A stretch of 63,448 bases of DNA, filler included, from Bonamia ostreae (lineage: Eukaryota), in NCBI GenBank assembly GCA_040357525.1. It is 5 parts of 5 records of this genome, joined end to end, with 100 filler letters (N's around TTAATTAATTAA, not from the genome) between each part and the next. Parts side by side here need not be neighbours in the genome. Positions count along the whole stretch, not along the records: positions 13,070 to 25,974 come from JBDODL010000013.1; 4 more parts are not named here. One strand, written 5' to 3'. Positions 13,081 through 62,185 of this stretch are shown here, in pieces (the stretch's first letter is position 1; every line of letters starts with the position of its first letter). A program made the translations under genes and the position numbers. Below the pieces are notes generated by a model that made no database searches, had not been told where the DNA came from, and worked only from the letters and a program-made list of their open reading frames with translations.

Positions 13081-13893
13081 TCATTTATTGCTCAAATCCA
13101 CAAGATCATCGTCGATGTCTCGCATGTCTTTTGCCATAAAAGTTCGATATAGTCGCATTGTCTCGCGGGCATCTTCCACTGAAGAATGCTCTCCCAATTG
13201 AATGCGGCTCTTCAAAAACTTGCGGCAAAGTTCTTTCAGCGAAACCGGCCCCGCTGGACAAAACTCACGAAACAGAGCGGTGTCTCGGATCAGATAACGC
13301 GGATGCTTCATAAACAGTGCACTCAAATCCGAGTCAATGTTGTGTCCGACGAGAATTTTTTTGTTTATCAACGCCGCCACTTTCTTTTTATTCGCAATTT
13401 CGAATTTAAATTTTCGATTATAAAACTGAATCGAAAACAATTTGGTTTTTGAAATTTTGAAATTGCAAATTTTATCGAAGCAATAAAAACTAATTGCGTT
13501 TCTTCAATATCACTTCCATTCTCAACGTCTTGTTTTCTTATTCCACTGACTTCTGTCCGCCAATCCACAACCAATTCTCTCGGTTTGACATACTAAAAAT
13601 AGAAAACTCAACCTCGTCTAAAATCGTCTCATAGTTGAAGTTTACTATTGAAACTCTCGCCAGCGCATTGTAATGGCCTTCCGTCCCCACTCCCACGAAT
13701 TCGCAATCTAATGCTACAGAATCTTCTATCTTCGGTCTAAATTTCAAGTTTAAATTTTTCAACTTGTTATTTCAAAGACAGTTTTTATTTTGAATTAACT
13801 TTTTATTTCAAAGACAATTTTTAAATTTATCAAATTTAGACAATCAATTATCGTCAGTAATCAAACTTAAACAACATTCAATTTATTCGCCAT
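13081..13893 (-). CDS. REXO4: RNA exonuclease 4 (DEDDh), multi-exon
   Basis: VALDCEFVGVG, LARVSIVN, ILVGHNIDSDL, IRDTA, GEHSSVEDARETMRLY; start at ATG 13893 is tentative. Confidence 0.88.
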
Positions 13894-13924
13894 TATTATT
13901 GAAATAATCAAATTTTATTGAAAA

Positions 13925-16903
13925 CTATTTACTAAAAATAATCGTTACAGAAATTCGGCAAAATATAAACAAAGAAGTCAGAGGTTGGATGACTTGCCAT
14001 GTTCTCAGCATATTTCTCCCCAAATCCAGATAAATCGCTCCGATTACCGCTTCAACGAAATCCCCGCATTTTTTCGGATGACGATTTTTCGATTCGTTCA
14101 ATATAACTTTAACGTTTTTCAAACTTCTTTTAAGTCCGCGATTTCTATCTTTTTCGAAACTTGTTTCGACCGGCAAAATGTTTTCGATTCCGCTTTTGTT
14201 GCGGTTGTAAAGAGGTTCTAAGCTCATCAAGAAGTTCGGTTGTCTAGTTTTATTATCCCATTTGCCAACTTTTATTTTTTGTGTCATTTTAAAACAGTCA
14301 AAAATTTTTCTGATTGGACATCAAAAACATCTTGTAAACAAATTTTTCCATTCGAAAGGATTCAAAAGTTTCTGCCAAAGAATCGTTGCAGACAAGTTCG
14401 ATCCTGGCTTCAGTCAGATCTTCGGGCGATGTGTTAGGCAACACATAAAATAGTTTCCGAGTGCAAAGAAAGTCGAGCACGCTGTCTCCCAAGAACTCCA
14501 AAAGTTCGTGATTTTTAGAACTTGACAGTCTTTCGCCTTGATAAATGGCTTCCATTGCGTACTGTTTATGTCTAAAACAGTAATTTAGCTTTTCTTCCAA
14601 ACTTTGAATTTTTTTCGCCATCTCAACATTCTCACGATCTTTTTGTTGCAATAAAATGCGAAAATCATTTTAACAACAAAAAGCAAAACCTTTTTTGGGA
14701 ACTTGAGACAGAAGACAAAAACCGTCGTCGATCGATGGTAACTCAATCTCTGAGCCAAACCACTTCAAAACTTCTGTCACAGCCTCAAATCGCGATTTTT
14801 CGTTGTTGCTGCTAAGAAAGGTAGCTCCAAGAACAGCTTCCACCAGATCAGCAATTTGCTTTTTTGTTACGATCGGATTTTCCACTTTAAATTTTTTGTT
14901 GATGTTTTTGACGAAGCACGGAGGAATATAATCTTTCCTTTGAAACTGACTTATTATAGAATAGTTATAAATTTGGTGCTTTTTCCCGTATTCTAACAAA
15001 GATGTATTCGATATCAAATCTTTTCGTCTTTTTAAATTTGCAAATGAAAAAGAATAAATAAAATTTACTAAAAGCAAAAATTAAAATTTGCAAATAAAAA
15101 AGCAATTTGTAAATTATAAAGAACAATTTGCAAATTAAAAAAAACTTTTCCGTCAAATTTCCTTCTCTAAAAAATTCTGTATTCTTGAACTTGCAGAACA
15201 AATAATCTGTCGCCAGGTACTTCAGAACACTGTCCCCTAGAAATTCCAACAATTCGTAATTTCTAAAGTTATTTGCGACAGAAAAGGTCATCGCTTCCTC
15301 CAAAAGAGACAATGAAACCGGAACGGGCAGTTTCCTTAGAAATCTCTGTACTGACAGAGAGTTTTGTAATCCCCAAATTGTCGACACAACGTCTGGCATT
15401 TCTGTGACTAAATTGAGTGGAACGGGATGCACTTCGCATAATTCTTGCACCAAATTTAGTGTCGGTGGTACATGTGATTTTGCCACTGAAGGAGGTATTA
15501 GTACACTGTGAGCTCTTGGATGTATTTGTCTTGACGTGAACAGTTCCAACTCTGGGTGTTTCAATGTTATCCCAAACCTATTTTTATTTAGACATTTTTA
15601 GTTTTATTTGGTTTTATTTCAAAATAGATTATCGTTATCTTTTTTTAAATTAAAATGATTATTCTCTTGTCTTCAATAATTTGCTTATTTTTTAAGTAGA
15701 AAATTTTAATTTTGCCAAATTTACGAGATCGATGTTTTTCTAATACTAAACTTAGCACAAAATTATTTTCTTCTCAATTAAAAATATTATTTTTGTAAAA
15801 TCAGGATTTTGCAATTACATTTTAAACGGGATAATTTACAACAATCACCGATAAAAATTTTAAATCAAACTCGCTTTTGAAAAAGCTATTCCAACTGGCT
15901 CCAACTTTGGCATTTTCATTGTCGCATTTTGAAAAAGCGCTAAGATTTTGCTGAAACTTTGTGAAGGTGTACAAATGCTGTTCCTGTGTATTGTAGATGG
16001 TTGTTAGCACTAATTGGTCAAAAGGAATCCGGTTTTCGCTATTTGACGGTTTCAGGTAGTCGACAAAATTTGTTTTTCCGTTTTTTACGGTTTCGTTTAT
16101 CTGTTTTATTGTTATAGCGATTAGAGCACTTTTTGGATAATAAATTTTGTTTTTTAGTAAATTGTCTTTGCAAACAAGTTTGTCTATTTTTTGTAAATTT
16201 TGTCTTTATATATTTACGAATTTTGTCTTTTAGTAGATTCATAAATTTATCATTTTTCGTTTAAACAAATTTATGACAGACATCCAGAAATTGGGAGTGA
16301 CAGAGTTAGTACTCAACTTGTAACTTCAACATTAAAAGACATTTTTAGGTTTAGCATTAAAACTCTGTCGATGCAGCTCCAATCGACACTCTTTCTTTCA
16401 TCCAAGGGCACAACCAAAAACATTGGAGCGTCCGAATCCATCAACATCTCGGGATGTATTCTCGCGTGACTCAGTAAATCGTTCAGAAAACAGTGCGCTG
16501 TTTTAATACGTTCGATCTGCTTAAAATTGAAGATCTGCGCACCCCGTGGCACAAACTTGGCCACAGCGTCATTATTAGTGTTGGGGATATCGACTTCTTT
16601 TGTGTTCAAATAAACGTCGAAAGCAATCTCCGGTTCTTCTATTTTTTGCTGCAACAAGATGGCGAAAGAGTCCATAGTTTCGATCTGTTTCTCTGTCTTT
16701 GGCTCAAAAACAATGTTATAACAAAAAAGCTGCATCTGTTCTTCGCCGACGAAAACACTTTTACTATATTCTATGTGATCTTTTGGATTTTCTACAGCTT
16801 TTTTGGAGATTTGTTGTCGTTTTGCGCGATCGCTCATGTATCCCCACGAACACGTGCCTTTAAACTCGTCTGGCACTGCATCTTTCGTTCTGTTCATTTT
16901 CGG
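13925..16903 (-). CDS. Dicer-like ribonuclease core (platform, PAZ-like, RNase IIIa, RNase IIIb)
   Basis: Two RNase III signatures with acidic residues intact: NYELLEFLGDSVLK / IADLVEAVLGA and NHELLEFLGDSVLD / CGDFVEAVIGA. Upstream platform-like segment (FLVVPL...VDWSCI). No C-terminal dsRBD visible. Confidence 0.9.
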
Positions 16904-17147
16904 CTTTTAATAATCATATATCGNNNNNNNNNNNNNNNNNNNNNNNNNNNNNNNNNNNNNNNNNNNNNNNNNNNNNNNNNNNNNNNNNNNNNNNNNNNNN
17001 NNNNNNNNNNNNNNNNNNNNNNNTTATCGAATGACAACAACAAAATAAAATTTTCAATTATCGAATGACAACAACAAAGTATAAAAATGTAAAAAGCTTT
17101 ATTGAATTTACTAAAGGTTTTAAAAGAAGGGGAAATTTTTAAAACCA

Positions 17148-20135
17148 GATTATTTAAAATTTGAGTTTCGACGTAACGAGAATCGCCTTGATATTCTTTA
17201 AAATTGTAAATTTCCCCCAGATTTATATCGAATTCCTAATTTAATTGTTTTTCAAAACTGCTTTTGTTCCTTTTGACTGATTGAAAATAAACGATGCGCC
17301 TCCGTGAGAATTTATAAACTTTAAAAAATGTTAAAAATTTTCAATTTGGCTTTTAAAACAATATTAAAAAACTTTTTTAGCAAAATTTTCAATTTCTGTT
17401 TCCGATCTGTCCTTAATATCCATTTCTTTTTCTTCTTTGTTCTCAGAAATCTCTCGATTCTTCTCCATTTTGTTATTTTCGATTTCACTTTTATTTCCGA
17501 AAAACTTTGATATGTCATTATTTCCTCGATTTTTATTTTCGGGTTTTTCGACAGAATCTTTTTTACATTGCAAATTCTCAATAAAATTTTCTTTATCACT
17601 TTTCTTACCAAGAATAAGTTTGTTATCAAACGATTTTTCGTTGTCAAACAATTTTATTTTTTCGTCAGTTTTGCCGTCTTTAATCAACTTTTCGCTCAAA
17701 TCATTGTTGCTATTACTTTTAAGGGCATTATTGTTACTACTATCATTTTTGAAGTCAATATCAGAATAGGAAGTGTATTTGTAAAATTTTGGGGGAAGAG
17801 TCTCCGGAATTTGATATTCGTTCAACTTAGATTTGTGTGGTGATATCCTTGCGCTAACAATTGGTACCCATTCAAAAGATCGAGGATATCCTTCATAAAT
17901 GATTTCTAGGGAAAGACCTCTGGGCTCTTCTCTTATCTGCACAACGATTCCGGGAACCCAATTCCCTTTCCCCAGTGACTGAGGGGATGTTCTGAAATCC
18001 AATTGCGTGCCAATTTTAATTTGTTCGCGCCATTTTTTGTCCTCTTTTTCGGCTAAAAATATTTTCAATTTAAAATTTATTTTCTTTTTTTAAATATTTT
18101 TTATTTTGACAAAAATTTTATTTTATTTTGATAAATTATTAAACGATGAATTTTATCTTTTTTATCAAATGAGAAAAAATTAAATATTGAATCAAGGCTC
18201 TCTTCGTTTTTAATTTCTTCATCAACAGATTTTCTCGAAATTTCCGCTTTTTTAAATTTTTCCACTTTCATTTCATTTTTGTTTTCTGAAATATTTTCTT
18301 TTTCAGTCATTTTTTCAACACTTTCACTATTTTTAGATAACAGATTTACGGATTTTTGCACGATTTTTATCTTTTCAATTCTAATTTTATCTGCTTTTTC
18401 TCTGGGCGAATTGCAAATTTCGCAGTTCTGTGCTGTTTTTTCGTTGAAAAAAGTGCAGAATAAACAAGCCCATTCGTCTTTTGAAATCCGATTGTAGTTG
18501 CAGATATCACATTTTGTTTGTTTTCTCTCAATGTTTTCAGATGTGCAGTTTATGCAATTCCAGGTTTGTTTGATCGATGGCGATACTTTCTTTTTTGTTT
18601 ACAAAATTTAATTTGTGTTTTGTATAATTTAGCATTTTGTCAAACATTTATTTTTAAATTCATTTTTGTTTTTCGATTTGTTAAACTTATTAATCGAAAT
18701 GTTAAAAAAAATTATAATTTAGCTTTAAAAAATATGAATAAAATTGGAATATGCAATAACAGATTTTAAAAATCTCCAAAAAGCTTCAGTTACATATTTT
18801 GAGTTTTGTTTCTTCAAATCAGCGACTGTCAAAATAAGTGATTGATTTCCCATTTTAAACAGAATATTTTTGTTTTTTAAAATGTAGATTTGCTTGTCTG
18901 TTTAAATTTTAAAATGTATTTTTAAATTTAGCCGAGAAAATAAATTTGCAAAATTAGTCAAAAAATAAAAAATCAGTAAAATAAAAGCCTCCAAACAAAT
19001 AAGGCCAACCGATAACTTTGCTACACGAGAAGCAGCGGGCTTTGGTCGATTTTTCTGGTTTTTGGCTGTACCAATCTCCTGTGATCGTTTTGGCAACATA
19101 ATGGACCATGACACCTAGACGATCTTTAACTTTCTGTTTAAGACGATGTCCTTTCACGAATATTAAATTTTTGACAAGCGTTAAGTTTGCCCCACAAAAT
19201 AGACAATGGATTGCAGATTTTCTTATCAAATGCTAAATTTGTCAAAATAAGACAATGTTAAATTGGAAAATATCAATTGTTACAAAAATCAAAAAATTAA
19301 ATTCAAATTTTTAATGTTCGTTAAAATCTAACAATTTGTAACAATTGAAAAAATTTACCAATTTTTCCATATCATTCTCTTCGATTTCATGCAACAAAGG
19401 CATTTTCTTCTGTTTTTGAACTTCAACCTTTTGAGACTCTTCGCCTAGAACATCTCTAACAAATTGCGTATTTTCAAGTTTGAGACTGTTTTGTCTCTTT
19501 GAGAAAAAGTTTATAAAATTGCAAACTGTTCTGCCGTCGATAAAGTTGTCATCTTCTAGATTTAAAGCATTGCTGGTGTCGTTTTGCTCGAAAGCGTCCG
19601 ACGGCAAGGTTTCTCCGGCGATGGGAAATTTGCTTTTATTTTTGTCTGCTTCGGATAACGGAGAGTCGTTTAAGTACCAACGACACACTTTGTTGGCCAC
19701 TGGTCCCAACGCGTATTCCGGAAAAGCGAATGGGAAATGAGGATGAATCTCAGAGCGCAGAACGTTCAGCCATTTCACGGGCGTTTTGGGGAAGGTTCGG
19801 CGCTCTTTGCGCTCGTGGACATATTTTTTCGCGAAACAAATAGCTCTTCGCAACAAAGAGCGGTCCATGTCGATCGCTTCAGATTCGTCGACTTCGATGA
19901 TGTTTGTGTTTTTTGACATGGCGCCACTTTGTATCGACTTTTTGACGGCGTAGAGTAGTGCGTCCGATAGCAAGGCATCCGAAATTTCGCCAGATTCGAT
20001 TTCTTTGCGAGCAATGCTTGTCTGCAAGACGGTCGCCCACGTTTTGGGGTTGGAAGGGATAGCGCCGTGAGAACTTACGAAGAAGTTGTCGATTCGTTTT
20101 TCAATGCGCTTACGAATAGTTTGGTCATCTTGCAT
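17148..20135 (-). CDS. Zn-finger/Tudor-like region, probable N-terminal part of the Dicer-like gene
   Basis: Phase-compatible exons: 19311-20135 ORF; Yippee/CULT/RLR-CTD-like CLFCG...CFSCSKVIGWPY; two RanBP2-type fingers at ~18400-18565; Tudor/chromo-barrel-like segment at ~17830-18030. Link to the Dicer core crosses gap 16924-17023. Confidence 0.65.
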
Positions 20136-51974: not shown

Positions 51975-54106
51975 TTATAACATGTATCTCAGCACCCCCT
52001 TCTCCGCCGATATGAACTCTCTCTCAAGTAAATACCGAACTCTGGACTCCAGGTGGCTCTGCTGAACGGCAAATTCCGTCGGCCCGAAACGCTCCAACAG
52101 ATCGGACTGCTTGATCTCCCCGCGATCCTTCAGAAGAGATATTATTCTCGAGTCGATCTACGATTGAGCAAATAACGATGTTGTCTTTCTCCAGTCCCGT
52201 CCGGAGCTTGCCCAGAACTGCCTTCTTGTTGGGCTTGACGCCGATCGTTCTGGGCACGGACAAACTTTTCTCGTCTTCGAGCGCCGAGTTGAACCTGAAG
52301 ACGTCATCGCTTTTCACCGAACCGCCTCCGGGTATTTTGGCGAGAATGCTCTCCTTCTTCCCTTCCGAGCTCTGGCAGAGCGATGCCAATCCGCGCTTCA
52401 AGTTCTCGTCGTCTGCAATTGAACAATCAAACCGACGCGGAGGGTCTCTTTGATCGAAGAGTAGCTGATTTGCTCGTACTCGTTGAAGAGGCACAGAACG
52501 CACGCTTGGGTCGCGTCCACCGCCAACTCGACTTTGCCCTTCTTCAGCGCCACCTTCAACCTGCACCGGTCGTTGCCCGGGCTCCACGCGACCACCTTGT
52601 TTTCCAGCTTCGCGCTCTTCTCGGAGCACATCGCCCGCTTAAATTTTGCTGAAAACTATCTGCTCCGCCAGCTGCGGCAGAACGCTCCCGACGTCGACCG
52701 CGGCGTCCGAGCAGGCGGGCCATATTTTCCGCCCGAAAACTTTGAGGCGCAGAAAGCTTTTCACGCCGAAGACCTGCTGCGAGGGTTTGCAGAAGAACTC
52801 GTCGAGCATGTCGTTCAAGCGCGCGACGTAGTTGGCGCCGCACTCCGCTTTGAGGACCCCGAGGACCCGCCTTTCCACCTCGCTGGCGCGCGGGCTTTCG
52901 GCGGGCGCACCCATCAGCCGGAAGGCGAGGCTCGCGCTGTACGCGAACTCGAACTCGCTTTTGTGGCTGAGCAGGCGGAACAGTGGGACCATCTCTCCGA
53001 TCGTCTGCGCGGCGTCCTCCCGGGCGATGCTTTCTTCGACGAACTGCGACTTACTGACCTAACCTTTATCAGAAAGCCCACGCACTTGTCGACGTTCCGG
53101 TCAATGGCGGCTTTCATGGACTGCTTTATCCCCGCTTCCAGCGTTCTGTCGCGCCTGGTGCGCTTCAATATCCGCGTCGCCAGTTTCTGTCTTTACTCAA
53201 ATTACCTCCAGGGCCAAGAGCGCGTCGATGGAGTCGGACGCGCTGAACAGGAGAGCCGCGCGTTCCTGACGTTGGACAATGAAACCAGGACAAACTCGGA
53301 AACTCTCTTGACGAACGCCTCTTTGGACGAGTTCTCGTAGCAGAGCTTGAAGAGCCTTTCGACCGCCTTCAGATCGCCCGCTTCGATCAGAGCCACGAGG
53401 TGCTTGTTGACGGCGCTTTCCAGCGTGAGTTTCCTTTGCCCCAGCAAGGCCGCGCTGTTGTTCTCGCCCACGAGAAACTGAATCTTTGTCTTGGCGTGTG
53501 TTCAAAACGTAAACGTCGATGCTCTCTTCGGCGGAATCTATCGCGGCCGCGGCCTTCGCTTTCTTCCGGCTGTCGTGGGCCTTCGGCGTTCTGCCGTGGT
53601 CCGTGATTGCCTCTACCGCGACTTGGCAGATTGTGCTCGTGTCGATCCCGAGCAAGTTGCAATGACCGATGCACTTTTCCAGTTTCCTAAAGTTCGCTCG
53701 GTTGCAGTCGAATAGCAGACTTTTTTGGTTTTCAGAACCTTTTGAAGTGGATTCGAAGTTCTCGTTTCAGCTCCGCGGCGAAGGAGTCGCAATTTCTGGC
53801 CAGTTTCCCCGTTTCGTTGAATCCCTTTTCCACAATGTTTCCAGGGGAAAAGAAAAAGTTGCCGGCAGGCGCTTCCCTGTGCTCTGCGAACAATTGCTCG
53901 GCCTCTTTTAGCGATTGTTCGTACTCGGAGAAGAGTTTGAAAACGTTTTTCTGAAATGCAAACAAAACTTTTTCGGCGAAAGGCCCTTTGTAGAAATAGA
54001 TGTTGCTAATAAAATTTTCTATTTGCGTTGCGTTGAAGTTGTGAGCGTACTTTAGGTGCTCGAGTATCTTCTATTGTTGTGGATGAACCTTTTTCTTCTC
54101 GGTCAT
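51975..54106 (-). CDS. Divergent cullin-family protein, multi-exon
   Basis: YSASLAFRL...LKAECGANYVARLNDM; spliced C-terminus IDSRIISLLKDR...YLLEREFI resembles the neddylation winged helix; start is approximate. Confidence 0.75.
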
Positions 54107-55084
54107 GTTTTTGCTATTGGCAAATTTTTCTGTTATGTCCGCCATTCCTTTTTTATCGACTGCGAACGGCTCATGCTCCATTTTGGACAGTTCATGAATT
54201 TTGATCCGAATAGGATTTTTGTAATTCACAAACACCATTTTTAAAGCTTACGGGAAATAATTATATAAGATTTATTTAATTTCGAATCTCATTATATATG
54301 CAAATTTAAATTTCCTAAAACATTCTGGTAACAAGAGTTACTACTTTATGACCAAACTCTTAGATATTCATTCAATGTGATGCTTCCGCGAAAGTGTCAC
54401 AGATGCGGAACTTATATTATACTAAAAGACAAACTCTGTTCACCTCATATTTTTTTGGTTATTCACCTTTCGCCGCTCCATGTATTGTTTCAAGACATAA
54501 GGAATTTCTTCCTCAAGTTTGACTTTCCTCATTGAAGAAGGGACGTTTCTTTTCTTTAAAGACTCGGAGAAGCCTAGAAGCGTTCTAGAAAAGTAACCAG
54601 AAAATAATAGAAGTAGAAAAAGAAGAATTGATAAAATAATGAATATTCATTAGAAATGTTACTCGAATAAACGAGATTTAGACTATATTAATTTTAATAA
54701 GATCATGATCATCGCGAGAAGCAATGATTGTTATGGATCAGAAAACTTGAATCACTCCTGAAAAAGAAAAGTTTGTATTATTTAAAGGTTGCGAAAGTCT
54801 CATTACAAACAAACAAATAGAGAATTGAATTAAAATGGTTTTATATTTCAATTTAAAAATATGAGTTGGTCAGCAATAAAGGAATTCTGAGAGCAAACAT
54901 CTTTTTTTTATTTTCGCCTCTTTGATGAAAGGGAACTCCTAAGAATTCATAGCAGGAACTCTTATGCTTCTACTGGTGTCTGATCTTAGCGCATATCGGA
55001 CTCAGTATCGAAGTGCAATGATACACCGATTGTTTTGATAATAATAGAAATTACAATTTGTTGAAATAAATTTAATTCGTTGCA

Positions 55085-58000
55085 TTAAACATTGGTTGAG
55101 CTCAAATGAGTTCGTGTGCTTTCGGTACTACCCTTGATGTAGATAAGACCAAGCGACTCGTTGCGGTTTAATTCCGACATACTCTCTTCTGAAACGTTCG
55201 CGATATCCTCTAAAGTTTGTCTAAATGGACTCCCTTTCGAATCCAAAATCAGCGCTACCGATTTAGAAAATCGCACCCGCATTCTGTTGACAGTGACAGA
55301 GTTTATTCTTTGCAACGACTTTGTTTGTATCGACTGGATGAGAGCGGGTGCGATGTAAACTTTTCCGACGACATCTCTTGCTAAAATTGGCAACAAAACC
55401 TTTCCCTTTCAAAAGCAGCACCTTGGAACCAACCAACTCATCGGTATCCGACTCAAATTTCCTAAAAGTAGACGACAAGCAGATCTCTCCCAACTTAACA
55501 TGGTCAGACTCAAGCTCCAACCTTGTTGTGAAAAGCATCCGCATCATCATGAAGGCTGCACACTTCCATGCTATCTCCTCTGTAGTTCTTTCGCGCAGAA
55601 TGGAATGTATTACAGTTTTTGGTACCTTGAGCACACTTGTTGTCGTCTGGGCCTTGAATCATTAACACAATGCAACTCTGCAAGTGGATATAGACGTGCT
55701 CTCTGCGAGGGAAGCCCACAAGTTGATGAGACTCCCTGGTCCGTAAATTCGCTCATAGTGGTCACTCGTGTTGATTTTGACAAGCCCTCGCACAATCTTA
55801 AACATTTAAATATTTACCAGAAAAAAGCTATTTTTGTTCTTTCCTTCAGTGTAAAGAGTTTCTTCTTCCGAAAAAACTTTGTACCTTAGTTTTGCAAACA
55901 GAATGTGTTTGGTTTGCTCATCAAAAACACTGATAAATGGCAAGTTTGAGAACAGAAGAAAAGTGTTTATCTTTGCGGGGATTTTGTAGCAGCTCCCCAC
56001 TTTGTGGATAAATGTGTTGACACGGTCTGTCATTTCCTCGCATTCGGAAGTCTGGATGATCCCGTCTTTGCGCAGACGGTTGATGTTTTTAATGTCGCTG
56101 TTAAGCACAAAGACACTCGCTTTTTGGGATTGGATTGATTGATAAATCTCCGGGAACGTTTTCTGTGAAATTAGACAGATTAAACTTGTATTCTGTGTAT
56201 TTCCAATTCTGCCAATTTTTCCGCTGCCTTTATCTCGGCAAAAACCTTGTCGGTCAAATTGGATTTCCATTCTGGGAACTTTTTGACGATGATTCCCGTT
56301 CTTCGATTGCATCAACAAAACCTGTCGGCTGCAAAAATAAATGCGGTTGAGAGTTGAACAGTCTCCAGTATTATCCCGAAGATGCTTTTGTGCGAGAAAT
56401 TTTTGAAGAAACGTTTTGAGTGCAGAAATTGGTACCATCGAGGGTACTTAAAGTGTTTCTTTATGCACGTCCACTGTGATTGTTGTAATCTGAAACCTGC
56501 TCTTTGATATCGTTGCAGTCAATGGATGCCTCTGCTGCGTCGTTCAGAATGTTGTAGGTGTGCGAATTTATGAGCCCGTCCTGGTGCTTTAGTGTTGTGT
56601 AACTTCAACCTGTTTCCAATAGAAACTTTTCATGGAGCAGATGAATCTGTAGCGGATATTGGATTCGACAGAGTGCTCGTTCTGCCCGCCGATTCCGTAA
56701 TTTTCCGTCTTCAGTAATCGCGAGTAATCGGGGATACTGTTCCTGAGCTCTAACCAGTTCGCACCACTATTTTAATTCGAATAAACGTGAAGTGGTTGTT
56801 TTGGCTCAAAACATTGACCAGATGATCCGATTTTTTAGCCAAATGTTCCAACGAAGATTTTATTAGAAAGTCAGACTGGTATAGTGACGACTTTATCTTC
56901 AAAAGTTTGAGTACATACTGAATAGTACTGCCGTTGATGACCTGGATTGTAGTGAGAAAAAAAACCAGTGTCAGGACGACAATTCCGCAGATGTGAAAGA
57001 CCATTTTTTCGCGAATGCTTTTGTCTATTCCGTTCAAGTACTCCACTTCAAGCGAGAGAGCAAGTCCTATCGCTCCTCGAACCGAGCCGTACCAGAGCAC
57101 ACACGCCGTTTTCCAATCGTAGTCAGCGCCCAAAAAACGCAAAACGGGGTGCAGAACAAGTAGCTTTGGTTAAAATCAAAACTGTGATGGCTCGCGTGAT
57201 TTGGATCCAGACATATATCGCCAGAAGATATCCGAACTCAAGCCACGACACGTTGCTTGCGTTGATCGTCTTGTAGGAGACGATGATCCCCGAGATCAGA
57301 AAAATGAGGCACTTCGAGAAAAACTCGAGCAGCTCCCAGAAGTGGTTCAAGTTTGCAAGGCCCTTTAATTATAACCCAAACTCTGGTTGAAAAGCGCGCC
57401 TTGTTGCGAGCTATCACCAAGCCCATAGCCACGGTAGCGAGCACTCCAGAAGATTTGAGCAAATCTGCGACTATGAAGTCGAGATTGATGCCGATGAACG
57501 TGGCCGAAGTTTCGAGCAATTCGTCGTTCAAAACGGTCGTTATGTAGAGGCTGGTTATGAATCCGAAGATGGCGCCGATCAAGGAACCAGAAAGTAGCAC
57601 CAAGCAACGGAATATGTAAAACGACGCCGTCTTTGATTTTTGGGAGTCGATTATCATCAATGTCAAGACGTCGAAAAGAATTATCGCGGAAGCGTCGTTG
57701 AACAGCGATTCCGTTTCAACAACGGTTGACAGATTTTGAGAAGCCTTTATCTCGCGAAGTAACGTCACGACCGCGACGGGATCAGTTGCGGAAACGATGG
57801 ACCCGAAAAGCAGCGAGATCTTTATGTTCCAGCGACTCAAAGTCATTCTAAAAACTATGGAAGGATGTAGCTGCAGATGATGGAAGTGAGAAGAGTATTG
57901 ATGAGGACGCCTTAAGTGTGGATACGGCAAACCTGGGATTGCCAAGACGAGTGCGTGCCATTTCACGCGCATCAGAGTGTGATGATTGGTGGAGAAGACG

Positions 58001-58297
58001 CTGTAGAAAATCAGATTCGGGAGAAAAATTTGCATGAAAATCATCGGGTTCAAAGTTCTTTTGGTGAGTACGCATTAAAAACTCGATTATGTCGATAAAA
58101 GGCACTTTTCTCTTTAAGGCGATGTCTATTCCGCCAATTGAGACGCCGACGAGAAGAAGGATGACTAAGTTAGCAAAACTTAAACCAGAGAAAGGAATTT
58201 TGTTGTGAAATTTTTTGTTCAGGTGATAAACTATCACGCCAATCAACATTCCTATGAACGCCACGAAAAGCCATGACGAATCTGATGACAAGGACAT
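55085..58297 (-). CDS. SOS1/SLC9C-type CPA1 Na+/H+ antiporter with cyclic-nucleotide-binding-like C-terminal domain
   Basis: IFLPNLIF, FGSIVSATDPVAVV, ESLFNDA, SGVLATV, FWELL, GSVRGAIGLALSL; tail LFSNLPF...LYTEG...FFLV. Confidence 0.85.
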
Positions 58298-58479
58298 TAA
58301 TGTTTACGGTAAATTTTGGGAAAAACAGTTTTAAAAATTCCTAAATTGTCCCTATAAACACAGGTTTGGAATTAGAATCAAATTCCTAAATCGTTACTTT
58401 CAAGTTTGCGAGATTATTTTAATTGTTTTAGCATCTACCAACTTTTGGAATACTCAAATTTAATTATTTCAAAATGCTC

Positions 58480-59215
58480 AAATTATGTAGCTGGCACAAT
58501 ATAAACTTTTAAACTAGGAAAATAATACATTTTTAATCAACGCTGCATGTGGAGATTATTATGTTCAACAATCCTTTTGGCATATTCTATTCCTTTGAAA
58601 ATTTTGTTGATTAGCATTGAATCAGAGTTCCAGTAACTCTCTTTTGAACATTTCGAATTTTTTGATTTATTTTGCGAATTTAATGTTTGCATCTTATCCT
58701 TTTTTGGAAGCGTTTTTAAGTCAGAAGAGACGATGTTGTTGAATTTTTTTAAATTTTGATGATGCAACTTAGGTCATCGATGTACTCATTTACGATGTGT
58801 CATGTATCGCATCTATGAGAGCAAGAAGTGCTCCAGACGTCTAATACGATCTAGTTGATATTCTGGAGCGAATTGGCAGGCAAAGATCCATAATCAAGAA
58901 TCAATCTAACATGAGATTTGTACAAATGTAGTTTGCTTTTTGAGCGATGCCGCATGTTTTGCTTCACAGGTGCCCGTATATCTGACTATCTTGTGCACCC
59001 TCTATCAACTAGTTCTTTGTTTTATCATCTATCTTGCTCCAAAACGTTTCCTTCGCCTTTGTTCCAGCCGCTTTTTTTAAGTTTTTGTAGTCGCCGTAAG
59101 ACGATCACGGCTATTTTGTTGCCAGATTTTTTAGTCTTCTTTGTGCTTTGCGCAGTTTTATGCTTACTTCTCTTACTTCGTTATTCCGCCAAATTGAAGT
59201 TCCTGCTTTTGGAAT
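58480..59215 (-). mobile_element. Possible decayed non-LTR retrotransposon fragment
   Basis: Stop-interrupted frame SIWRNNEVREVSIKLRKAQRRLKN...YKNLKKA...KAKETFW resembles the LINE endonuclease-RT linker. Confidence 0.3.
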
Positions 59216-59292
59216 ACATAAAAGAGAGTTTTATATCAGAAAATAGCAATTAAGCGACAGAGCAAATTCAATCAAGCTAACTGTTTACTCGT

Positions 59293-61050
59293 TCATTCGT
59301 CCATTCTATCTTCTTTGAAGACGGAAAGCGCGGTCGCGCTGGAATCTAGCAGTGTTTCCGTGCACCAGCTCGGCATCCACTTGTACGGAACGGATTCCTC
59401 CGCGAAGCCGTGCGAGTCGAAAATCTCGCGGTACCACATGTCCTCCTTTGTCTGCGGAGTCGAATGGGAGTACAGCGCCGCCCGAGCCTCGAACCTGGAG
59501 TGGGTCACATGTTTTTCTGCTTGGGACTTGAGATAGTCCTTCCACCCGTCCTTCTCGCTCGTCCCGTCGCTCATCGCGTGCTTGGTTCGCCACAACACCT
59601 TCTCGGGCAAGAACTCGCCTTTCGCGCCGGCGAAGGCGTCTCTCAGTATTTTCTTCTCGACCCGCTGGTTCGAAAGCGGGTCTATGTATTCGGGCGGGAG
59701 CGCCAACACGAACTCGAGAAGCGAGCGGCTGAAAAACGGCAATCTGAGCTCGCAGCCGATGCTGCTCACCATCCGGTCTGCGCGCAGCCCGTCAAAGTAG
59801 GAAATGTCGCGCAGACGGTCGATCGCTTTAGTTAGGATTTTCAAACCATCGATCCTCCCAGAGAAGGGGTCGGGAGACAGCAGGTTGTACAGATACCCTC
59901 TCAGAAGCTCGTCGGCTATCTCGCCACTATAGACCACCGCGATTTCAGGGTGCTCCTTCTTCATCTTCTTCAGTCCCAGAAGCATTGCGGTGGAAGCTCT
60001 GGTCGTGGTCTGGTCCCAGCTCTCGTTAAAATAAATCGCCTCCTCGACGAGTCGGCCGCCCTTTTCGAAGTTGAAAATGTACGTCTCGTGGATGGAATCC
60101 AGGTACTCGGCGACTTCTTCTGCGGCAATCACGTCGGTGGCGCGCCGGGAGAAGCCGAAAGTGAAGGTCCGGATTCTTCTCGGCGCTAAAAGTTTCGACG
60201 CGATGGCGCAGACGAGACTTGAGTCGAGCCCCCCGGAAAGCAGAAAAGCGAATGATCTCTCTGGATTGAGCTTTCTCTTTAAGTTGTCGACCAACAGGTT
60301 TCTAAGTTGCTGGACGGCTTCGGAATAAGAGATCTCTTTGAAATCAGTACGCCTTTTCTCGGATTCGAAGTCAAAATGTTGCGAGATCTTTGCGCTTTCC
60401 AAGGCCTCCTTGTTCCCCAAAGCCACGGACCTGCTTCCCATCGATCCGGCTGGAACAGGACTAATCGTTGGCAAGAAGGACAATGGCTTTTGCTCCGAAG
60501 ACAAATAAAAGCCGCCATCTTCGTCGATCCCGTAGAAAATGGGGCGGACGCGCAGTTCGTCCACTGCGAAGACTACTCTTTGTTTTTCCGAGTCGTAGAT
60601 GATTATCGCGTACTCTCCGTCAACTCTTTTGCACACTCTCCTCATGGTCTCAACGTAAATCTCTTCTTCGGGTCTGCTCCTGTTCTCTTCGCGGATTTTA
60701 GACAAGAAGTAGATGAACAAGTTGAGGACGACTTCGCAGTCGCTATCAGATTTGCATTCGTAATTGCTCATCTTCTTCTTCAGAAATTGGGCGATTTCTC
60801 TAAAGTTGTAAATTTCGCCGTTGACGAGAGAGCAGAAGCGACCGTCGCTGGAGACGAAAGGCTGCATTCCGGCCGGAGTGGGGTCGACGACTTGGAGTCT
60901 GTGGAATCCGGTCATCACGTTGGAGTTGAAGTACTGGACTCGAGAGCAATCTGGCCCGCGGTGCTGCAGCTTTCTAAAGCGCTCGCACAGTTCTTTTTTA
61001 GCTTTGCCTCTTATTTTAAGCGCTCCGCCGTAGAAAAAAATTCCACACAT
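59293..61050 (-). CDS. ASNS: Asparagine synthetase (glutamine-hydrolysing)
   Basis: MCGIF start at 61050, HRGPD, GFHRL, NGEIYNF, LLSGGLDSSL, SGEIADE, RADR, WMPSW; probable in-frame 21-nt intron at 59826-59846. Confidence 0.95.
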   Translation of the reverse strand: MCGIFFYGGALKIRGKAKKELCERFRKLQHRGPDCSRVQYFNSNVMTGFHRLQVVDPTPAGMQPFVSSDGRFCSLVNGEIYNFREIAQFLKKKMSNYECKSDSDCEVVLNLFIYFLSKIREENRSRPEEEIYVETMRRVCKRVDGEYAIIIYDSEKQRVVFAVDELRVRPIFYGIDEDGGFYLSSEQKPLSFLPTISPVPAGSMGSRSVALGNKEALESAKISQHFDFESEKRRTDFKEISYSEAVQQLRNLLVDNLKRKLNPERSFAFLLSGGLDSSLVCAIASKLLAPRRIRTFTFGFSRRATDVIAAEEVAEYLDSIHETYIFNFEKGGRLVEEAIYFNESWDQTTTRASTAMLLGLKKMKKEHPEIAVVYSGEIADELLRGYLYNLLSPDPFSGRIDGLKILTKAIDRLRDISYFDGLRADRMVSSIGCELRLPFFSRSLLEFVLALPPEYIDPLSNQRVEKKILRDAFAGAKGEFLPEKVLWRTKHAMSDGTSEKDGWKDYLKSQAEKHVTHSRFEARAALYSHSTPQTKEDMWYREIFDSHGFAEESVPYKWMPSWCTETLLDSSATALSVFKEDRMDE

Positions 61051-61488
61051 TTGCAAATTATGATTATTACTTAACTTCTGTTTAATCTTAAACCTTTGAA
61101 AACCAACACTTGAAATGTGCAATGTGTTTTAGATTTTTTCTGATTCGCTGCAAATATGTTGGATCCAACGCTCTTTTTAGATTTATCATTCGTGCCCATA
61201 TCAACCACGAGAGCGTTTATGGAAAGCGCCCCTTCCTTTGACGTCCCTTCATTTATGGAAAATCCGAACAAAAATTATAAGAGAATGTACAATTTTAGGG
61301 ATCAAAAAATCACAAGATGTGTTATGGAAAAAGAAGGCTGCAGCTGAAAACATCAAAGAAAACAACAAAGAAGACAACAAAGAAGACAAATCGCGTCAAA
61401 ACTGAAACAGCTGAACCCGTTCCTGCGCTAAAACTTATAATCAATTGGAGAGAGGAACATAAACCCGAAAACGTTAAATTTATAAAAT

Positions 61489-62185
61489 CTATCCGCAGCA
61501 GCCGCTGTTTCCCATAAGAACCTTTTCGGTTTCCAACGAAAAGGCTTTTCTTTCGTTGACTTGTTTCATTTGAATAATGCGATTTTCCACGGCACTCGAC
61601 GAAAGTTCGTAGAACGCGTTTTGCACGTTGAAGTTATTTCTCGCGCTGGTTTCGATGTATGGAACTTTCATCAATTTGGCGAGTTGCTTATTAATCAATG
61701 TCCAAACTTTGCCTTCTTCTTCTGCAACGACGCGTTTTTCGGTCAAGTCGTTTTTGTTTCCCACTAAAAGCACTTTTGTGTTCTCGGAAGAGTGATTTTC
61801 TATTTGGCCAATCCATCTGTTTTTTACATTCTCAAAGCTTTTTCTGTTCGTCAAATCGAAGACGGTGAGGATGCAATCTGCGCCTCGATAGTACGAGGTG
61901 GTGATATTGTTGAACCGTTCTTGGCCGGCGGTGTCCTTCGGTGAAAAAGGGAAACCCAAATCTGCAGTTTCACGGTTTTGCCTTTGATTTGAATCGTTTT
62001 TATCTCAAGGTCTACGCCGATCGTAGTTATGTAATTATCGTCAAACTCTCCTTCCTAAAATTGATTTCGAAACGCTGTATCGCCTGACGAGACTAGACTT
62101 TCCGCAACTCGAATCGCCGATAACGACAAACTTGAGGGAAAGATCGCTAGGAATTAGGATAAAACTGCTTTTGTTCTCTACTCAT
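61489..62185 (-). CDS. Rab GTPase (Rab1/Rab8-like)
   Basis: [44 protein letters not shown]-terminal GCCG; four introns of 19, 19, 20 and 21 nt. Confidence 0.93.

Follow-up and report, generated by a model that had tools for sequence, protein, structure and literature searches.

A stretch of 63,448 nucleotides (nt) from Bonamia ostreae, a haplosporidian parasite of oysters (GenBank assembly GCA_040357525.1), composed of five parts of five records joined end to end, was analyzed and is referred to here as the window. On its minus strand, between 20135 and 13081, lies what we judge on balance to be one long gene for a helicase-less Dicer, which carries a set of N-terminal modules, very probably ends in an exonuclease and would act in small-RNA production. 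All positions are coordinates along the whole joined window. The encoded protein is predicted to contain, in this order, a helical N-terminal domain, a zinc beta-tent-like module, one or two RanBP2/NZF fingers, a barrel-like block, a low-complexity linker, a block at the platform position, PAZ, a connector, RNase IIIa, RNase IIIb, and an ISG20/REX4-type DEDDh exoribonuclease. The C-terminal DEDDh exonuclease is the most unusual part of the protein. As judged by alignment, the fused architecture is kept across two lineages labelled as rhizarian, the second being represented by P0004, a 1655-amino-acid (aa) protein from a transcriptome set of EukProt that bears the label of the foraminifer Nonionella stella.

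Gene structure and extension of the public model

The DNA of the window is AT rich, with a GC content of 27 to 35% along most of it and more at 52 to 62 kb, and an Rfam scan of it gave 0 matches. From 20135 to 13081, the minus strand shows a series of open pieces with very AT-rich spacers between them. When the exon at the platform position was used as a query, a single longer protein, P0001, was found among 314 candidates. P0001 is the NCBI entry "hypothetical protein MHBO_000103 [Bonamia ostreae]" of 1427 aa; the protein itself is therefore already public, as "hypothetical." A spliced-matching script reproduced it exactly from the window, placing 1427 of 1427 residues in 13 exons on the minus strand, the first starting at ATG 20135 and the last ending at 14301. 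The introns measure 30, 126, 91, 171, 92, 54, 23, 242, 263, 293, 118, and 51 nt and are GT-AG throughout except for one GC-AG intron, the GC donor being that of the intron after ...YLFG. Exon GC content is 25 to 48%, versus 8 to 26% for the introns.

An exon chain from ATG 20135, including the junction ...QILNNL|PKMNRT... across an assembly gap, had been proposed in a first-pass annotation of this DNA, and it proved to be the public model, residue for residue. Its first exon begins where it was said to begin but contains a further in-frame 30-nt intron (19526-19497) that had gone undescribed. The conserved helical N-terminal domain, the frame break in RNase IIIb, and the C-terminal DEDDh exonuclease had likewise been missed. 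According to the available text of the genome paper, the public annotation was produced with funannotate train, predict, and update using the published transcriptome reads of PMC9329632 (PMC11069148). We infer that the P0001 model is transcript derived, because ab initio prediction is unlikely to yield an in-frame intron of 30 nt, one of 23 nt, and one with GC-AG ends.

The extended model comprises 17 exons and 1706 aa, from 20135 to 13081, its first 13 exons being those of P0001. The gene end had earlier been placed at 13925; in the extended model, the gene runs on to 13081. Read this way, MHBO_000103 is apparently cut short within RNase IIIb and seems to be without the exonuclease. The features of the gene are as follows, with the support for each in parentheses.

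13081..20135, minus strand: whole gene in the extended model, stop codon TGA at 13083-13081 (script model).
19527..20135, minus strand: exon 1, ATG 20135; residues 1 to ~160 form the conserved all-helical N-terminal domain (P0001 match, structure model).
19359..19496, minus strand: exon 2, after the in-frame 30-nt intron 19526-19497 (P0001 match).
18989..19232, minus strand: exon 3, first half of the putative zinc beta-tent-like domain (CxxC ... CxxC), with the GC donor (P0001 match, Pfam, Atlas, VIA).
18761..18897, minus strand: exon 4, second half of the putative beta-tent-like domain (P0001 match; kept in P0006 and P0004).
18145..18589, minus strand: exon 5, a pair of RanBP2-type fingers (~18562-18398), then a linker rich in acidic residues and lysine (Pfam, HMMER, NZF chains in PDB).
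17373..18052, minus strand: exon 6, barrel-like, possibly Tudor-like block (~18038-17826), then a low-complexity linker (kept in P0004 and P0005; Atlas; no Pfam match).
17259..17318, minus strand: exon 7 (P0001 match).
17146..17235, minus strand: exon 8, after the 23-nt intron 17258-17236 (P0001 match).
16904..17145, minus strand: joining intron, donor GTTTTAAA, acceptor ...TTAAAAG, 242 nt as assembled (P0001 match).
16364..16903, minus strand: exon 9, platform-position block with internal ATG 16897 (P0001 match; kept in P0004; no family match).
15871..16100, minus strand: exon 10, PAZ-like region (phmmer alignment to DCL3 872-1126; PAZ in P0004).
15146..15577, minus strand: exon 11, end of PAZ, connector, and start of RNase IIIa from ~15306 (Pfam, phmmer).
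14690..15027, minus strand: exon 12, remainder of RNase IIIa (to ~14808) and linker (Pfam).
14329..14638, minus strand: exon 13, first half of RNase IIIb, ...LEFLGDSVLD... (Pfam E 9.9e-12).
14297..14328, minus strand: break in the reading frame, to be explained by an intron of 19 nt (14328-14310) or by a frame change of one base at 14303-14297.
13971..14309, minus strand: exon 14, second half of RNase IIIb, ...GDFVEAVIGA... (Pfam; aligned to P0004).
13613..13736, minus strand: exon 15, where the DEDDh exonuclease begins, ...ALDCEF... (in phase; spacing as in P0004).
13491..13592, minus strand: exon 16, after the 20-nt intron 13612-13593 (Pfam RNase_T; gap-free versus P0004).
13084..13383, minus strand: exon 17, rest of the exonuclease, ...GHNIDSD... 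and ...HSSVEDA..., after a 107-nt intron (Pfam RNase_T).

Micro-introns of 30, 23, 20, and possibly 19 nt (19526-19497, 17258-17236, 13612-13593, and the candidate 14328-14310, all on the minus strand) coexist in this gene with ordinary introns of 51 to 293 nt. The donors are GTTT, instead of GTAAG or GTATG, in 11 of the 15 firm introns, or in 12 of 16 if the 19-nt candidate is counted, and one donor is GC. For the mikrocytid relatives of Bonamia, introns of only 16 to 17 nt are described in the available part of the report (PMC10245619); the Bonamia genome paper, in its available text, calls the introns only "canonical introns" (PMC11069148).

The Dicer core

Four of 12 open reading frame (ORF) pieces matched RNase III in Pfam, and P0001 as a whole matched Ribonuclease_3 over two stretches (E 1.8e-29). 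The acidic catalytic motifs E...D and D..E, embedded in ...LEFLGDS... and ...D..EA..GA..., are present in both RNase III domains once the frame is read on past 14300. The two RNase III domains described by the first-pass annotation are there, but their intactness has to be qualified by a frame break inside RNase IIIb.

In a phmmer search, residues 987 to 1232 of P0001 aligned to residues 872 to 1126 of DCL3, a stretch that runs from PAZ across the connector and reaches RNase IIIa. This alignment and a PAZ match above the Pfam cut-off in P0004 (32.9 bits; cut-off, 28.8) agree with the PAZ-like domain that had been proposed, although P0001 itself has no Pfam PAZ match. The closest solved relatives of the Dicer core are Arabidopsis DCL3 (E 1.2e-25), DCL1, fly Dcr-1, DCL4, and human Dicer, and 42 distinct PDB sequences matched P0001 at E <= 0.01. 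Over the platform-position part, the phmmer stretch to DCL1 scored -3.9 bits. No helicase, DUF283, or double-stranded RNA-binding domain (dsRBD) family was matched by P0001 or P0004 in Pfam at E <= 0.1, in line with the absence of these domains reported at first pass. As far as domain comparison can tell, these data supported the assignment of the protein as a helicase-less PAZ-type Dicer.

The C-terminal exonuclease

What looks like a neighboring exonuclease gene at 13736-13081 joins RNase IIIb in phase via a 234-nt intron (13970-13737), with the donor GTTTATAT at 13970 and the acceptor TTTAG at 13737. Within the first exonuclease exon, no ATG precedes the first motif. Bonamia and Nonionella have an equal spacing of 32 residues between the D.GR motif, which closes RNase IIIb, and ...ALDCEF, the motif LPK.ED..ALDCEFVG is common to the two, and the exonuclease region aligns without gaps to P0004 across the 20-nt and 107-nt introns.

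The Exo I (D.E), Exo II (D), and Exo III (H....D) motifs are present in exons 15 to 17. Scanned exon by exon against Pfam RNase_T, exon 17 scored 25.4 bits (cut-off, 24) and exon 16 gave an E value of 0.0037, its match covering profile positions 40 to 72 and beginning at the first residue after the 20-nt intron, while exon 15 alone gave no match; P0004 scored 57.3 bits. In PDB, the exonuclease matched ISG20L2 (E 1.8e-29), ISG20 (3.9e-22), SDN1 (1.9e-15), and PAN2, with a profile dominated by the Nonionella row. These results indicated that the C-terminal part is probably an ISG20/REX4-type DEDDh 3'-5' exoribonuclease belonging to the same protein.

A collinear protein in a second lineage

Residues 1 to 801 of P0001 were used as the query of an HMMER scan over 1.84 billion representative proteins (E <= 0.001). 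Among the 54 proteins found, 49 match only in or around the zinc-finger region, and P0004 (E 6e-32) is the only long protein that matches outside it. Four further relatives, P0002, P0003, P0005, and P0006, are fragments from Logan contigs. P0002 (59% identity) and P0003 (45%) cover the N-terminal domain, P0005 covers the second finger and the barrel block, and P0006 covers the second half of the zinc domain. Both P0002 and P0003 break off at the same exon boundary (...EKL and ...EKM, respectively) and continue in an intron-like read-through; therefore, this intron position is common to the relatives.

P0004, which also has a sister form of 1675 aa, has its parts arranged alike, with the conserved N-terminal domain followed by one RanBP2/NZF finger, a barrel-like block, PAZ, both RNase III domains, and the ISG20/REX4-type exonuclease. 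Pfam recognized the RanBP finger, PAZ, Ribonuclease_3 (E 1.1e-38, two stretches), and RNase_T (E 3.6e-15) in it. The 1706-aa model is collinear with P0004, with 493 identities in 1523 aligned columns.

N-terminal modules

An AlphaFold2 (AF2) model built from a six-row alignment contains only helices in residues 1 to 160, with a predicted local distance difference test (pLDDT) score of 71 to 90 in 14 of the first 16 ten-residue blocks and of 56 and 60 at residues 71 to 90; the rest of the 801 residues stay below about 63 per block. In this N-terminal domain, 37 columns are invariant across five rows. The first-pass annotation had considered that a helicase fold might be hidden at the N-terminus; according to the model, residues 1 to 160 are all-helical instead and do not adopt a RecA-like helicase fold. 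A Foldseek search of PDB returned nothing at E <= 0.001. In a wide search with VIA, residues 1 to 77 gave only generic helical matches (Z <= 6.8), from which no fold name was taken, and the matches of residues 89 to 164 to ribosomal protein chains (Z 5.0 to 5.6) were regarded as a generic three-helix arrangement.

The zinc domain carries two CxxC pairs about 50 residues apart in Bonamia. It had been described as Yippee/RLR-CTD-like, that is, as resembling the C-terminal domain of RIG-I-like receptors (RLRs), and several leads point the same way. Its Atlas neighbors, at 0.79 to 0.85, are the At4g08330, Yippee-Mis18, FAM72, STEEP1, and RIG-I C-RD beta-tent clusters, and the top Foldseek rows, none of them significant, include Mis18, LGP2, RIG-I, DRH-3, and cereblon. 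With VIA, residues 256 to 372, a model region with a pLDDT of ~45 to 55, align to whole RLR C-terminal domains at Z 3.0 to 4.4, the matches of this low-confidence model including LGP2 (Z 4.4; root mean square deviation, 3.5; 78 aligned) and RIG-I (Z 3.8; 81 aligned). On the other side, the Pfam Yippee-Mis18 match of the zinc piece (E 0.0011; 19.6 bits) falls under the cut-off of 26.6, and Nonionella keeps only the second CxxC pair. These leads agree, each being weak, and suggest a beta-tent/RLR-CTD-like domain.

Two RanBP2/NZF fingers had also been proposed. Finger 2 fits the pattern W-x-C-x2-C-x10-C-x2-C, and it matches the NZF-type fingers of HOIP and NPL4 (E 0.006 to 0.008) and, in the profile search, TAB3 (1e-6), with TAB2, HOIL-1L, and NPL4 also among the matches. 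It bears a T-F/hydrophobic signature, which we take to be the ubiquitin-binding signature of NZF fingers. Finger 1 is a variant of the pattern, with 11 residues rather than 10 between its Cys pairs, and is absent in Nonionella. The Pfam match of the finger piece (E 0.0004; 20 bits) lies under the cut-off of 27, the finger in the relatives scored 23.9 and 25.1 bits, and several HMMER matches align across both fingers.

For the barrel block, earlier called Tudor-like, the language-model leads in Atlas (0.80 to 0.87) are the KIF2A N-terminal, Tudor-knot, MBT, Spin/Ssty, and Agenet clusters, and the block is kept in P0004 and P0005. Neither the Bonamia pieces nor P0001 or P0004 gave a Pfam match here, and the AF2 model of the block has a mean pLDDT of 40. 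A Tudor-like nature is thus a weak lead for this block.

Proposed function and alternatives

The sequences show the gene structure, how the domains are ordered, that this order is kept in another lineage, and that the catalytic motifs are intact. From these we infer the substrates and the roles of the exonuclease and of the reader modules as follows. PAZ, together with the platform if there is one, would anchor the end of a double-stranded RNA (dsRNA), and RNase IIIa and RNase IIIb would form the usual intramolecular pair and cut at a fixed distance to yield small duplexes. The tethered exonuclease may then trim 3' ends or strip one strand. The front modules would recruit or regulate, via RNA ends, ubiquitin, or methyl marks, rather than catalyze, and may functionally "replace" the helicase. 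From its domains, the protein is most likely a Dicer that measures by PAZ and has its own nuclease for 3'-5' trimming.

Several observations weigh against this assignment. In the core, P0001 gave no Pfam PAZ match at E <= 0.1, and the "platform" block is so named by position only and has no Pfam match. Regarding the gene model, the frame is broken within RNase IIIb, and a full-length product depends on the 19-nt intron, on a +1 shift, or on correction of the sequence; the true length of the joining intron is hidden by a gap of unspecified size; a separate Dicer transcript could use the in-frame ATG at 16897, which in the unspliced frame has a TAA three codons before it; and, in Bonamia, the exonuclease could be transcribed separately by way of a short exon that opens at an ATG near 13892. 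As to the relatives, the Nonionella label belongs to a transcriptome of an environmental organism, for which a contaminant eukaryote is a possible source; a word-index search with short fragments across the 801|802 junction found it in 0 of 141 candidates; and a profile search with alignment A1 yielded only P0004 among 7997 scored candidates. Finally, Mikrocytos, a relative of Bonamia, lacks Dicer and Argonaute according to the available part of the report (PMC10245619).

REX4 and ISG20L2 function in rRNA maturation, and ISG20L2 and ISG20 are the closest solved relatives of the exonuclease. As the main functional alternative, the fused protein could be real and yet be no Dicer of RNA interference (RNAi), but a nuclear enzyme whose RNase III domains cut, and whose REX4/ISG20L2-type exonuclease trims, precursor ribosomal, small nucleolar, or small nuclear RNA. 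The lack of Argonaute and Dicer in Mikrocytos would fit such a role, as would the rhizarian Plasmodiophora, which makes small RNAs with a Drosha-like enzyme and without Dicer, as stated in the available part of that study (PMC13547706). Likewise, Argonaute is unmentioned in the genome and transcriptome papers on Bonamia as far as their available text goes; the published transcriptome paper has no mention of Dicer, Argonaute, or RNAi, and four files of the available supplement to the genome paper contain no entry for MHBO_000103, Argonaute, or Piwi (PMC11069148). We nevertheless consider RNA processing of this kind unlikely. PAZ scores above the Pfam cut-off in the ortholog P0004, the PAZ-connector-RNase IIIa stretch aligns to plant Dicer-likes, and the small-RNA nuclease SDN1 is also among the relatives of the exonuclease. 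Moreover, end measuring by PAZ is a hallmark of Dicers that produce small RNAs, not of Rnt1-type processing enzymes.

A bolder form of the small-RNA reading would make the protein an "all-in-one" rhizarian enzyme, which combines RLR-CTD-like sensing of RNA ends, dicing, exonuclease trimming, and NZF/Tudor-like links to ubiquitin and methyl marks with a switch between a truncated and a complete form. In Bonamia, this switch would operate by removal of the 19-nt micro-intron or by a ribosomal +1 slip at TTT TGA C. We regard this full combination as rather improbable.

One gene or several

The note of caution in the first-pass annotation that the last junction spans a 100-N gap was justified: 100 Ns lie at 17023-16924, within the 242-nt joining intron (17145-16904). 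A 20-nt direct repeat, TTGTTGTTGTCATTCGATAA, occurs in two copies at 17077-17058 and 17043-17024, the second abutting the gap, and may explain why the assembly breaks there; Tandem Repeats Finder reported nothing at the gap.

It is conceivable that prediction has merged two or three adjacent genes, namely, one for the reader modules, a Dicer starting at ATG 16897, and a REX4-like exonuclease with a small first exon of its own. Besides the gap in the joining intron and the in-frame TAA ahead of ATG 16897, the short exon from the ATG near 13892 could be spliced, with the frame kept, to an alternative acceptor that lies ahead of the exonuclease motif. Read-through models are also a real risk in B. 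ostreae, in which the median intergenic distance is 218 bp, according to the available text of the genome paper (PMC11069148). However, all parts stand in the same order in one uninterrupted ORF of the distant relative P0004, in two isoforms, and P0004 has no Met at the position of ATG 16897. On the basis of this comparison, a wrong merging of neighboring Bonamia genes is very unlikely. In P0004, moreover, only ~12 residues separate RNase IIIb from the exonuclease; in the window, the junctions are all in phase and carry the GTTT donors usual for the gene, and the upstream frame is free of stops up to the gap after removal of the 23-nt intron. That the upstream modules and the Dicer form one protein, as first proposed, is what the public Bonamia model and the P0004 ORF both say.

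The frame break in RNase IIIb

P0001 ends at ...QKNF with a stop codon at 14300-14298, inside RNase IIIb. Two candidate readings can carry the frame across this point. In the first, a 19-nt intron (14328-14310) is removed, with a GTTTT... donor, usual for the gene, and a CAG acceptor. In the second, one base changes in an A5T5 run, either as an assembly error or as a +1 slip at TTT TGA C (14303-14297). The spacing from ...LAE to I.D.FK is 21 residues with the frame change and 15 with the 19-nt intron, versus 21 in Nonionella, and the one-base change is favored over the intron only because of this equal spacing. A conserved alignment of the segment before the break to Nonionella was tried and rejected, since it scored -12 without gaps, a value equaled or exceeded by 1467 of 1647 windows. 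A slippery codon followed by a poor stop, as at RF2, makes a classic +1 frameshift site, and TTT TGA C after its run of five Ts resembles such sites.

That the Bonamia copy is decaying, with RNase IIIb truncated and the enzyme inactive or a mere scaffold, is extremely unlikely: the stop after ...QKNF is found in the window and in the public protein alike, and ascetosporean parasites have lost many genes (PMC11069148, available text), but past this point the other frame runs on through 112 open codons with the conserved catalytic motif ...GDFVEAVIGA... and joins an intact exonuclease, all remaining exons are open, and micro-introns of 20 to 30 nt are present elsewhere in the gene.

Other features of the window

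Positions 52000 to 62000 have a GC content of 0.37 to 0.56, versus about 0.30 elsewhere in the window. This region carries long intron-free ORFs, among them one for asparagine synthase at 59296-61128 (minus strand; Pfam E 3.8e-44) and a partial ORF for a Na+/H+ exchanger at 57241-58074 (minus strand; Pfam E 6.5e-31).

Relation to known enzymes and implications

The Dicer of Giardia intestinalis (PDB 2FFL) consists of platform/PAZ, a connector, and two RNase III domains, a core like that predicted for the Bonamia protein, and, like the latter, has neither a helicase nor a dsRBD. Its chain, 2ffl_A, is among the PDB matches, with an E value of 0.0065 in the sequence search and 3.1e-7 in the profile search. 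However, Giardia Dicer has ~750 aa and is bare at both ends, whereas the Bonamia protein adds ~800 N-terminal residues and the C-terminal exonuclease. The best matches over PAZ, the connector, and both RNase III domains are the plant enzymes DCL3, DCL1, and DCL4 (PDB 7vg2, 7eld, and 9kby; E 1.2e-25 to 2.6e-20), but these have a DExD/H helicase and DUF283 in front and dsRBDs at the end, none of which was found in the Bonamia protein.

Exonucleases that work beside Dicer or Argonaute are separate proteins, as is the case for ERI-1, which acts with DCR-1 in Caenorhabditis elegans, QIP in Neurospora, RIF4 in Trypanosoma brucei, and SDN1 in Arabidopsis. They have the DEDDh 3'-5' exoribonuclease fold in common and work on small RNAs or on duplexes of these; unlike them, the Bonamia exonuclease is very probably linked covalently to the Dicer, and it belongs to the REX4/ISG20 branch rather than to that of ERI-1. 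The C-terminal zinc domains of the RLRs LGP2, RIG-I, MDA5, and DRH-1/3, and Yippee/Mis18, have two CxxC pairs about 50 residues apart, as in Bonamia, but in the RLRs this domain follows a helicase, while no helicase precedes the zinc domain here. Among the studies found, PbDRL of Plasmodiophora brassicae is the one rhizarian RNase III enzyme whose part in small-RNA biogenesis has been studied so far. According to the available part of that report, it has two RNase III domains and a dsRBD but no PAZ, and no Dicer was found in P. brassicae, only this Drosha-like enzyme (PMC13547706). The Bonamia protein has a PAZ-like region, as supported by P0004, and a different architecture.

To our knowledge, helicase, DUF283, and dsRBD are missing in accepted protist Dicers as well. 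Since helicase-less Dicers such as that of Giardia are already known, the absence of a helicase alone is not new. The novelty lies in the set of N-terminal modules and especially in the covalently attached exonuclease, in two rhizarian-labelled lineages. No description of such a Dicer architecture was found in the literature searched on Dicer in Bonamia, Rhizaria, and foraminifera and on exonuclease fusions, a search in which few subscription journals were covered.

Taken together, the gene bears on the biology of Bonamia and of the Dicer family in several ways. The extended 1706-aa model corrects the public gene model, and the gene points to very short introns in Bonamia. It places PAZ-type Dicers in Rhizaria, where one functional study, in its available part, reports only a Drosha-like enzyme (PMC13547706). 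Dicer architecture is a main guide to the evolution of RNA silencing. If true, a Dicer that carries reader modules and a 3'-5' exonuclease of its own, kept between a haplosporidian and a transcript labelled as foraminiferal, would be a new solution to tasks that are usually split among several proteins.

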